Position numbers and translations under genes: made by a program
IMG/VR virus record: IMGVR_UViG_3300030328_002398
Location: 1-55,003 of that record
Direction: 5' to 3' (one strand)
DNA length: 55,003 nt
Source: a virus
Lineage: Duplodnaviria; Caudoviricetes
Shown: positions 37,541 through 39,676 of the stretch, in pieces
Numbering within the stretch: position 1 is the stretch's first letter
Layout of the letters: each line of letters begins with the position of its first letter
The notes under the pieces: model-generated
What the model was told of the DNA's origin: nothing
The model's database searches: none
The model's input: only the letters and a program-made list of their open reading frames with translations

Positions 37541-37612
37541 GCCTCTATAGCACAGCGGTAGTGCAGGGCTTTTGTAAAGCCAAGGTCGGCGGTTCAAATC
37601 CGTCTGGAGGCA
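37541..37612 (+). tRNA. tRNA-Thr(UGU)
   Basis: Acceptor GCCTCTA/TGGAGGC; D-arm GCAC/GTGC; anticodon loop TT-TGT-AA; T-arm GGCGG-TTCAAAT-CCGTC; no encoded CCA. Confidence 0.93.
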
Positions 37613-37626
37613 TCCTCTTTTGAGGA

Positions 37627-37679
37627 TAGGTGATGTCACCTACATTCTGGACAGGAGTTCGACTCTCCTCACCTCCACC
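37627..37679 (+). ncRNA. ssrA: Permuted tmRNA, acceptor (aminoacylated) piece
   Basis: GGAC + T-arm AGGAG-TTCGACT-CTCCT + CACCTCC-A-CC, complementary to GGGGGTG at 37759 with a G3:U70 pair; 5' boundary approximate. Confidence 0.88.
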
Positions 37680-37681
37680 TT

Positions 37682-37754
37682 TGCTCCTTAGCTCAGTTGG
37701 TAGAGCGGTTGACTGTTAATCAATTTGTCGCTGGTTCGAGCCCAGCAGGAGCAG
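37682..37754 (+). tRNA. tRNA-Asn(GUU), nested between the two tmRNA pieces
   Basis: Acceptor TGCTCCT/AGGAGCA; D-arm GCTC/GAGC; anticodon GTTGA-CT-GTT-AA-TCAAT; T-arm GCTGG-TTCGAGC-CCAGC. Confidence 0.95.
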
Positions 37755-37758
37755 TCAT

Positions 37759-37968
37759 GGGGGTGCCAAGGTTTCGACAGGGTATAAGGAACATGACTGA
37801 AGACCTGCTTGGATAAGCAAACACAGATGCTAAAGACATCGACACCGCTGCGAATAACATCGTAGCATTCTCTCGTGTTCTCACAAGAGAATTCTCCCGC
37901 ACTAGCGAACTCGCTACTGCCTAAGGGGAGATGGGGGTTTAGATCAACCTTCTTAACCAACTGATCCT
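37759..37968 (+). ncRNA. ssrA: Permuted tmRNA, coding piece (tag ANNIVAFSRVLTREFSRTSELATA* at 37850-37924)
   Basis: 5' GGGGGTGCCAAGGTTTCGAC matches the cyanobacterial tmRNA 5' end; tag begins ANNIV.F like cyanobacterial tags; 3' boundary approximate. Confidence 0.9.
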
Positions 37969-37992
37969 TGGGGGTGCAATGCCCCCTCTATT
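37969..37992 (+). terminator. Terminator-like hairpin after tmRNA
   Basis: GGGGGTG-CAA-TGCCCCC followed by a T-rich tail. Confidence 0.65.
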
Positions 37993-38008
37993 ACTATGTT
38001 TTTAGGTA

Positions 38009-39676
38009 ATGAGAGTAGTTGGTATTAGTCCTAGTCATGATGCTTCCGTTTGTGTATTAAACGATGGAGTTATAGAAGGTTTTTATAAAGAAGAGAGATA
38101 TTGGCGTGAGAAGAAAGCGGATAGACCATACCTTTCATTAATTGAAGCAAAGAATAACTTAAAGGGTCCAGTAGATAAGGTAGTAATTGCATCACCAGAT
38201 CCCCCAGATTCATATAGTATAGATGAGATCGCAAGGAGATTATTTGGTTGTGAAGTTCTTGATATGTCTCAGGTGCATCACCTACAACATGCTGCACTTG
38301 GATTTGAGAATAGTAAGTTTGATCAGGCTTTAATATTTGTGTTAGATAGACAGGGATCTCTTATAGGTGATTGTTTAACTGAATCCGAGACTGTTCTTGT
38401 AGGAGAGAGGGATCCATATTCAATTATGGAGATCTATAAAAACTATTGGGCTCCTGTATCTGGTTTTGAACATTCTTTAAAGATTAATAAGGTATTAGAA
38501 GAACTTAATAATAGTGGAACTACTAAACATATTTGTAGAAGTCAGTTTTGTTTAACTAAAGTTTATGAGTCTGCAACTACTTTAATAGGACAACACCCAT
38601 TAGAGAATGGTAAGACTATGGGATTGACTGCTTATGGTAATCCTGACGGATTTCCAGATCTATTTGTTAAGGCATTGGATCCAGACATCCAAATGATTCC
38701 AAACGATTCCTATTTTAATAAGATAGAACCCATAACTCATACACCAGAACCCGTATGTTTTAGGGATTTTACTCATATGATTGTTAAGAATGTCCCTCAA
38801 GATTATTATCAAGTATATGCTGATTATGCAAAGCATGTTCAGAATCAAACTCAAGAGGCAGTATCAGAATGTATTGCATACTATTCTAATAAGACAGGTA
38901 TTAAGAATATAGTGGTGACAGGTGGTTTTGGTATGAATGTAGTTGCAAATTCATATTATGTTCAGACTAATCCAGATCTAAATTTCTTCTTTGAACCACT
39001 TGCAGATGATACTGGTAATAGTATTGGTGGTGCCATGCTTGTATATAAACAAACATCAAAAGATATTAGAAATTATGCTTTATGTGATACCTTCTATCAT
39101 GGAACTCCTACTTCTGCTGGAGATCTAGGACAGGATGTTGATTTATCTGAGGTTGTAGAGTTACTCTTACAGCAGAAGTCTATTGGAGTATTTCAAGGAT
39201 ATGCAGAGGCAGGACAACGTGCATTAGGTAATAGATCTATACTATTTGATGCTACTAATCCAGAGTGCAAGAATATTCTTAATCGTATTAAGAAGAGGGA
39301 ATGGTATCGTCCTTTTGCTGCAATGGTACTTGAAGAAGACGCTGATATATATTTTGATATGTTAGGATCATCTCGTAGTGAGTTTATGACTCAATCATAT
39401 CAGGTTAGGAGTGAATATAGAGAATTACTAAAGGGTATTGTACATGTGGATGGTTCTTGTCGATTACAGACAATAAATAAAGGACATTCATTATATGATT
39501 TCCTTAAGGAATTGAAGAGTAATGACCATATTGGTGTTATTGCCAATACATCATTTAACCTTGCTGGAGAACCACTTGTAGAAACAGTGGATCAGGCTCT
39601 TAAAACACTAAATGAATCAGAGTTGGATTATCTCTGGTTTCCTGAACATTCTAGGATTATTAAAGACAATGTTTGA
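38009..39676 (+). CDS. O-carbamoyltransferase (NodU/CmcH family), copy 2
   Basis: SHDAS, KEER, HHLQHA, GKTMGL, EAGQRALGNRS, KKREWYRPFAA, HVDGSCR, NTSFN. Confidence 0.92.
   Translation: MRVVGISPSHDASVCVLNDGVIEGFYKEERYWREKKADRPYLSLIEAKNNLKGPVDKVVIASPDPPDSYSIDEIARRLFGCEVLDMSQVHHLQHAALGFENSKFDQALIFVLDRQGSLIGDCLTESETVLVGERDPYSIMEIYKNYWAPVSGFEHSLKINKVLEELNNSGTTKHICRSQFCLTKVYESATTLIGQHPLENGKTMGLTAYGNPDGFPDLFVKALDPDIQMIPNDSYFNKIEPITHTPEPVCFRDFTHMIVKNVPQDYYQVYADYAKHVQNQTQEAVSECIAYYSNKTGIKNIVVTGGFGMNVVANSYYVQTNPDLNFFFEPLADDTGNSIGGAMLVYKQTSKDIRNYALCDTFYHGTPTSAGDLGQDVDLSEVVELLLQQKSIGVFQGYAEAGQRALGNRSILFDATNPECKNILNRIKKREWYRPFAAMVLEEDADIYFDMLGSSRSEFMTQSYQVRSEYRELLKGIVHVDGSCRLQTINKGHSLYDFLKELKSNDHIGVIANTSFNLAGEPLVETVDQALKTLNESELDYLWFPEHSRIIKDNV

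Follow-up and report, generated by a model that had tools for sequence, protein, structure and literature searches.

A tRNA-Asn gene nested within the circularly permuted tmRNA gene of a viral genome fragment, and its counterparts in related loci

The viral record IMGVR_UViG_3300030328_002398, a 55-kb stretch that was analysed as a whole and is called the window here (55,003 nucleotides, with a CheckV completeness estimate of 24%), carries a transfer-messenger RNA (tmRNA) gene whose two pieces are separated by a complete gene for tRNA-Asn. The window was scanned over its whole length with ARAGORN and with the Rfam covariance models at their gathering thresholds, and both give the same order on the plus strand: tRNA-Thr, tmRNA acceptor piece, tRNA-Asn and tmRNA coding piece (Table 1). 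A first-pass annotation, made from the sequence alone, had claimed a permuted two-piece tmRNA with a complete tRNA-Asn as its intervening segment and had proposed ARAGORN and the Rfam cyano_tmRNA model as a check; both genes were called by both programs at the positions claimed, with Rfam scores far above the cut-offs, all of its coordinates agree with ARAGORN, Rfam and the pair map, and its limits for the tRNA are more exact than those of ARAGORN.

Table 1. Features of the tRNA and tmRNA locus in the window; the last row refers to positions in the records of isolate phages.
Feature	Position	Strand	Source
tRNA-Thr(UGU), adjoining the tmRNA acceptor piece upstream	37541-37612	+	ARAGORN; Rfam RF00005, 64.4 bits
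Leader hairpin, 5 pairs, 5' end of acceptor piece, weakly conserved	37613-37626	+	Rfam cyano_tmRNA alignment
tmRNA acceptor (3') piece	37627-37679	+	ARAGORN, Rfam, pair map
Helix 2 5' strands, in acceptor piece	37629-37649	+	Pair map
T arm, in acceptor piece	37653-37669	+	Pair map
Acceptor 3' strand CACCTCC	37670-37676	+	Sequence, pair map
Discriminator A and following CC (tmRNA acceptor end)	37677; 37678-37679	+	Sequence, pair map
Spacer TT, 2 nt, tmRNA ACC end to tRNA-Asn 5' end	37680-37681	+	Sequence
Nested tRNA-Asn(GUU)	37682-37754	+	Rfam RF00005, 68.7 bits, E 2.5e-15; ARAGORN
Spacer TCAT, 4 nt, tRNA-Asn discriminator to tmRNA G1	37755-37758	+	Sequence
tmRNA coding (5') piece	37759-37985	+	Rfam RF01851, 113 bits; ARAGORN; pair map
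Acceptor 5' strand GGGGGTG, in coding piece	37759-37765	+	Pair map
Helix 2 3' strands, in coding piece; then hairpin, tag frame, 3' helices	37778-37798	+	Pair map
Tag reading frame AKDIDTAANNIVAFSRVLTREFSRTSELATA and TAA stop	37829-37924	+	ARAGORN, sequence
Terminal G+C-rich hairpin of coding piece	37970-37986	+	Rfam alignment, sequence
CDSs over isolate tmRNA genes	L001 1836-2045; L002 1504-1722; L003 1443-1568; L004 1428-1568		Record annotation

The match to RF01851 (cyano_tmRNA) runs from 37596 to 37985 and covers the full model, positions 1-288, with 113 bits against a gathering threshold of 70 and an E-value of 7.1e-30; its sole large insertion relative to the model is 76 nt long and falls in the closing loop of the acceptor stem. 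RF04321 (tmRNA_permuted) is matched with 80 bits against a cut-off of 47, and ARAGORN reports a permuted gene (tmRNA*) at 37588-38015 with the tag AKDIDTAANNIVAFSRVLTREFSRTSELATA*. The order is permuted: first come the T arm and the 3' acceptor strand, and downstream of these the 5' acceptor strand and the tag frame. As had been annotated, the two acceptor strands (37670-76 with 37759-65) pair at 7/7 positions including G3:U70; the T arm pairs at 5/5, and the pairing claimed for helix 2 is found at 16 of 17 positions, with one C-A mismatch. The alanine identity elements, the G:U pair 37761:37674 (G3:U70) and the discriminator A at 37677, are both present.

The tag of 31 residues begins with Ala and is closed by a stop codon, its resume codon being an ARAGORN heuristic. 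Phage tags have the form A(K/N)xxDxA followed by ANNIVAFSR..., the host-type tag being ANNIVRFSRQAAPVAA, and they end in ATA, VTA or VAA as against PVAA in hosts; the start of the phage tag resembles a partial duplication of the resume region, which makes the true resume codon uncertain. ARAGORN also called non-permuted tmRNAs at L001 1218-1635 and L095 224-627, which overlap tRNA clusters or the true permuted gene; these calls, unsupported by Rfam, are probably false positives.

The nested tRNA-Asn was scored with the overlapping tmRNA call set aside, and its 68.7 bits compare with a cut-off of 29. It has the anticodon GUU, no non-standard pair, an acceptor stem of 7/7 pairs and a G discriminator, and it does not encode CCA; the limits given by ARAGORN, 37681-37756, are looser than those of Rfam. 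Its nearest free-standing relative in an isolate is the tRNA-Asn of phage S-CAM8 (92.4% identity), which adjoins a tRNA-Thr; the two genes differ on both sides of pairs 2:71 and 49:65. Directly adjacent tRNA-Thr and tRNA-Asn genes are found in many cyanomyoviruses that have no tmRNA (e.g. S-CAM8, L253 322-470; DNA matches H19-H40), and the window resembles such a pair with the tmRNA acceptor piece placed between its members.

The first-pass annotation had proposed a survey for tRNAs inside permuted tmRNA genes. We scanned viral, metagenome and genome collections with a pattern that runs from the T arm through the 3' acceptor strand and a gap of variable length to the 5' end of the tmRNA. The loop lengths in the viral collection are bimodal, either 4-9 nt or the size of a tRNA with none between: 72 loci fall in the class of 1-30 nt (all observed lengths being 4-9 nt), none at 31-59 nt, 13 at 60-90 nt, and none at 91-120, 121-150 or 151-180 nt, so that no loop long enough for two tRNAs (121-180 nt) occurs in this collection. 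All 13 loops of 60-90 nt hold a tRNA, Asn in six and Tyr in seven. The metagenome scan gave 33 loci, 14 of which are phage-type with a nested tRNA (Asn 7, Tyr 5, Asp 2), two of these lying on the same contigs as viral loci. Counting the window, nesting was found at 28 loci, which lie on 26 distinct contigs (Asn 14, Tyr 12, Asp 2), that is, 27 viral or metagenome loci beyond the one first described. The other 19 metagenome loci have loops of 64-70 nt without a tRNA, and their tag, where ARAGORN reads one, is that of freshwater picocyanobacteria. The bacterial genome scan returned 10 loci from freshwater Cyanobium, Vulcanococcus or Synechococcus with loops of 64-68 nt, none of which (0/10) contains a tRNA. 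A tRNA-less intervening segment of 64-70 nt and the tag ANNIVRFSRQAAPVAA are thus seen in the tmRNA genes of these freshwater genera (L090-L099 together with the 19 metagenome loci). A looser, lineage-independent pattern matched at least 120 stretches; among the matches listed, 111 are permuted tmRNAs of other lineages with loops of 60-90 nt and 0/111 hold a tRNA, and the remaining listed new loci (119 were new) comprise five without a call, two plain tRNA arrays and one tRNA beside a standard tmRNA.

Sequences of tRNAs are common to many phages and break assembly graphs, and contigs often end at tRNA borders, so an assembly chimera that joined a tRNA cluster to a tmRNA gene was weighed as an explanation for the nesting; the occurrence of three different tRNAs at one spot on 26 distinct contigs from many samples leaves it with a negligible probability. 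The stretch is moreover present in sequencing runs of 15 studies, and contigs assembled from independent runs bridge the junctions, the absence of reads across which had been named beforehand as a sign of chimerism. Among these are Logan contigs on the locus in three RNA-library runs from two studies (in such contigs, parts left uncovered carry no meaning). A 176-nt contig (X16 record 11) covers 37682-37857 with 0 differences and bridges tRNA-Asn and the coding piece; a 217-nt contig from a relative (X15 record 3; 37613-37830, 11 differences) bridges both junctions, and a third (X15 record 1) comes from an un-nested relative and skips 37678-37754. The starts of two of these contigs, at 37682 and 37613, coincide with predicted cleavage sites; we rejected them as evidence of processing, since tRNA words shared among genomes break the assembly graph.

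In order to see whether both genes are under selection, we aligned 20 distinct nested tmRNAs, taking the structure from the window's Rfam alignment, which favours this structure somewhat. With this reservation, pairing is kept in 100% of cells of the acceptor stem, the T arm and outer helix 2; all 20 sequences have G3:U70. Changes on both sides are found in 15 of the 39 tmRNA pairs, and the covariation score of 0.242, against a shuffled mean of 0.136, was reached in none of 500 shuffles and lies above every slid control. Two helices are weaker: the leader hairpin pairs in 57.6% of cells, and the hairpin that comes first after helix 2 in 69%. The tag frame is read by ARAGORN in 25 of the 28 nested loci, the other three being cut by contig ends. 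These data bear on whether the insertion of a tRNA inactivated the tmRNA and left a decaying pseudogene in which only the tRNA matters. The tRNA does sit between the two strands of the acceptor stem, and the mature two-piece tmRNA is a predicted product; decay is nevertheless very unlikely given the complete pairing of the acceptor stem, the T arm and outer helix 2 together with two-sided changes of pairs, the invariant G3:U70, the intact tag frames and a RF01851 score, 113 bits for the window, within the 109-143 bits of un-nested isolate tmRNAs.

The nested tRNAs have likewise kept their features. Five distinct nested tRNA-Tyr sequences compared with three free-standing ones retain the long-arm cloverleaf, and in 6 of the 24 pairs both partners have changed; anticodons and discriminators are intact in 28/28 nested loci. 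In none of the 28 is there a second gene with the anticodon of the nested tRNA within the locus sequence, mostly fragments of 1-15 kb that represent part of each genome. The comparison of sequences thus supports the view that the tmRNA and the nested tRNA are both working genes. The earlier claim that the spacer is a functional tRNA inside a tmRNA gains backing from the recurrence of the arrangement, the kept tmRNA pairing, the compensatory changes and the sole copy of the anticodon.

Inspection of the junctions revealed short spacers on both sides of the tRNA. Where tRNA-Asn is nested, the tmRNA discriminator A is followed by CC and then TT (7 loci including the window) or AA (7 loci), and G1 of the coding piece is preceded by TCAT, TCAC or CCAT. 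The tRNA-Tyr loci have TC or TT after the discriminator and CTCT, CTCCT or CTCTT before G1, and the tRNA-Asp loci have CCA after it and TTTTT or TTTTTG before G1. In the Asn relatives with the AA spacer the tmRNA acceptor end therefore has an encoded CCA, and in the Asp-nested loci the tRNA begins directly after the encoded CCA. An encoded CC or CCA at the acceptor end of the tmRNA is found mainly in genes with a nested tRNA. The nested tRNAs themselves never encode CCA, as some free-standing phage tRNA-Tyr genes do (L005 6694-6778; L013 1637-1721).

It is established that tRNA-processing enzymes cut the precursors of permuted tmRNAs (PMC11915505). Because the gene is circularly permuted, like those of picocyanobacterial hosts, the acceptor-stem loop has to be removed before a two-piece tmRNA can form. 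In the window, host RNase P would cut at the 5' ends of tRNA-Thr, tRNA-Asn (37682) and tmRNA G1 (37759), and host RNase Z or exonucleases, together with the CCA-adding enzyme, would finish the three 3' ends after 37612, 37677 and 37754. The cut that frees tRNA-Asn would leave a 2-nt trailer on the ACC end of the tmRNA; in the Asn relatives with the AA spacer the same cut would leave a 1-nt trailer after a complete CCA, and in the Asp-nested loci there would be no trailer, RNase P alone being able to give the mature CCA end. The predicted products are tRNA-Thr, tRNA-Asn and an alanine-accepting two-piece tmRNA that would work with host SmpB. The nested tRNA thus appears compatible with maturation of the tmRNA and may help it.

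It could be asked whether the nested tRNA serves solely as a processing module in cis, offering RNase P and RNase Z sites that split the tmRNA precursor, and does not decode. Its position means that its own maturation would trim both tmRNA ends, and the Asp-nested tRNAs start right after the encoded CCA, as would suit such a role. Relatives with loops of 4-9 nt, at 72 viral loci, need no tRNA, however, and a mere module would have no call for the intact anticodons and discriminators or for being the sole copy of its anticodon in the sequence of all 28 loci; in two loci (L008 and L123) the nested tRNA-Tyr replaces a free-standing copy. We regard this explanation as improbable.

We consider it probable, then, that the locus is one transcription and processing unit of tRNA type from a marine Synechococcus myovirus, the precursor of which would be cut by host enzymes into tRNA-Thr, tRNA-Asn and the two-piece tmRNA. 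The RNA-library contigs fit co-transcription as one precursor. Several points weigh against this proposal. Logan contigs cannot show strand, RNA ends or RNA origin, and carry-over of DNA into the libraries is possible. The promoter and terminator scan found no sigma-70-like promoter upstream of tRNA-Thr. The minimum free energy fold of 37627-37800 places the tRNA cloverleaf within the tmRNA acceptor stem, with an energy z-score of -0.68 that is no better than that of shuffled sequence, and it carries no weight as evidence. The nested tRNA-Asn sequence is identical in 14/14 Asn-nested loci, and with such invariant copies selection on it can be seen only by comparison with free-standing homologues. 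Most nested loci are fragments of 1-15 kb, and the lack of a second copy covers only that DNA. The nested form, be it with Asn, Tyr or Asp, is absent from all 50,697 records of cultured or deposited phages. Finally, a search for SmpB (PF01668) found none in the window, as the first-pass annotation had stated, nor in four complete isolate genomes that have this tmRNA, and for this reason the SmpB of the host is implied.

Several kinds of evidence suggest that the window comes from a marine Synechococcus myovirus similar to S-SSM7 and Sf-FS3. Its best DNA matches are Synechococcus phages, and the neighbouring genes include 2OG-Fe(II) oxygenases and a carbamoyltransferase. A cyanomyovirus origin is further supported by the PhotoRC-II RNA motif, a leader of cyanophage photosynthesis genes, which scores 50.1 bits (cut-off 39) at 12-111 on the plus strand. 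Five isolate phages, Sf-FS3, S-SSM7, S-SSM6a, S-CAM1 and S-CAM3, have a related permuted tmRNA whose loop is 5 nt long; one record each of Sf-FS3, S-SSM7, S-CAM1 and S-CAM3 was checked with ARAGORN, Rfam and the loop scan, and other matches were assessed by BLAST coverage only. In the alignment with the isolate tmRNAs, the tRNA-Asn of the window is a clean insertion. The records of these four isolates have hypothetical-protein CDSs over the permuted tmRNA (Table 1) and no tmRNA feature in the stretches examined, and two S-CAM1 records have no feature at all over the region; the CDSs are probably spurious.

Comparison of closely related loci gives an indication of how a tRNA came to be nested. 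In L052 and L126 the order is Tyr-Ser-Val-Pro-Asn-Leu-Ala-tmRNA with a free-standing tRNA-Tyr, whereas in their relatives L008 and L123 no Tyr precedes Ser, and a tRNA-Tyr gene lies within the loop of the tmRNA. The commonest nested tRNA-Tyr (8 loci, including L123) is identical to the free-standing one of L052 and L126, and L008 carries a variant. The tRNA-Tyr gene appears to have moved and not to have degenerated, and the comparison points to a recent relocation within the tRNA cluster.

A tree was computed from 83 unique tmRNAs without their loops; of the 133 pattern-bearing loci, 107 were long enough for it and 26 truncated ones were dropped. Nested states are scattered among short-loop relatives and at least 13 changes of state are needed; the well-supported branches alone still force several (at least three for Asn and at least two for Tyr). 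Approximately unbiased (AU) tests reject a single clade for the Tyr-nested loci (p 3.6e-170), the Asn-nested loci (p 4.4e-06) and all nested loci (p 1.5e-10), and do not reject one for the two Asp rows (p 0.38). Some of these state changes could be mimicked by phage recombination; even so, at least three events are needed, because three different tRNAs occupy one site.

The nearest short-loop relatives of the window (L025, L028, L037 and L062) have the tmRNA without a tRNA-Thr or tRNA-Asn within the locus sequence. The short-loop sisters of the Asn-nested tmRNAs (L025, L027, L028, L037, L048, L062 and L020) have loops of 8-9 nt that read CCTTTGCAA, CTTTTGCAA, CCTTGCAA or CCTTGCAG, and they have CCTT and TGC in common with the start of the nested loop. 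To judge from the letters, this likeness may have been left behind when a tRNA was lost, or may be a microhomology at which one was inserted; TTGCA occurs also in an unrelated clade, which weakens the idea of a deletion scar.

Within the tmRNA gene, the excised loop would be the only site at which an insertion is tolerated, and tRNA genes of the surrounding cluster may have moved in and out of it repeatedly. We offer as a tentative proposal, and one which taken whole we are inclined to doubt, that the loop of the cyanophage permuted tmRNA is a recurrent landing site for at least three species of tRNA (Asn, Tyr and Asp), with repeated gain, loss and relocation, and that the RNase P cut of the nested tRNA makes or nearly makes the CCA end of the tmRNA, thereby coupling activation of the tmRNA to maturation of the tRNA. 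If this were true, the nested tRNA would be more than a passenger, and the tmRNA could do without some of the ordinary 3'-end processing, the CCA end being most exact in the Asp-nested loci.

In this arrangement two functional structured RNAs would share one helix and loop, and the tRNA must be excised before the tRNA mimic works. The locus would be a natural test case for the choice of RNase P and the 3'-end enzymes among nested tRNA-like substrates, for their order of action and for whether this order gates ribosome rescue during infection. It also suggests that tRNA genes of phage clusters relocate within short evolutionary times and can lodge in another gene without breaking it, and that tmRNA finders which drop calls overlapping a tRNA can miss such genes. 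The parts and the enzymes are familiar; for two structured RNAs, it is the architecture of a gene within a gene that is striking.

The gene in the window agrees with the two-piece tmRNA of picocyanobacteria (RF01851) in the order of acceptor piece, loop and coding piece, in its tRNA-like domain and its helix 2, and in the ANNIV.FSR core of the tag, but it is borne by a phage with no SmpB nearby and its loop is a tRNA gene; its tag has about seven extra N-terminal residues and a different C-terminus. Two-piece tmRNAs of marine phages are known, a count over 402 phage genomes with a tmRNA having given 53, of which 50 are marine or aquatic (Melnitz and others; PMC9004378), and these share with the window a phage-encoded permuted ssrA in marine myoviruses; they differ in that the available part of that article describes no tRNA inside the intervening segment. 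One permuted tmRNA, from a nominally archaeal metagenome-assembled genome (MAG) that its authors suspect to be misbinned, has an intact tRNA-Ala in its intervening sequence, which was called a 'unique feature' (PMC11915505, 2025). As far as the available part of that study goes, it is the only such nesting reported among 97,179 curated tmRNAs, 79 of them from phages, and the pipeline dropped tmRNA calls overlapped by a strong tRNA unless they were permuted and strong. The likeness lies in a tRNA within the intervening sequence, here tRNA-Asn at 37682-37754 between 37679 and 37759; the difference is that the nesting described here recurs, is found in phages and concerns Asn, Tyr and Asp. Our cyano-type pattern did not recover the published tRNA-Ala case in the genome collection. 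A search of full-text literature, outside of which lie the supplementary tables of PMC11915505 and PMC9004378, found no description of nesting in cyanophages or of the Asn, Tyr and Asp cases. The first-pass annotation had known of no description of a nested arrangement, and this stands for the recurrent cyanophage form but has to be given up in general, given the single tRNA-Ala case in PMC11915505; what is new here is the recurrent nesting in cyanophages, the permuted phage tmRNA and a single precedent for nesting being already known.

Two further systems invite comparison. Some tmRNA genes carry group I introns in the T loop (PMC11915505), and these too are natural interruptions removed at the RNA level. 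The intron splices itself and the exons are rejoined, whereas here nothing would be rejoined and the segment removed would itself be a useful RNA. In the dense, co-transcribed tRNA clusters of T4-like phages and in the tRNA punctuation of mitochondrial transcripts, tRNAs lie 0-6 nt apart and are freed by RNase P and 3'-end processing, and the tRNA cuts define the ends of the neighbouring RNAs. The nested loci differ from both in that the tRNA lies inside the helix of another RNA, and its removal would also split that RNA into two functional pieces.

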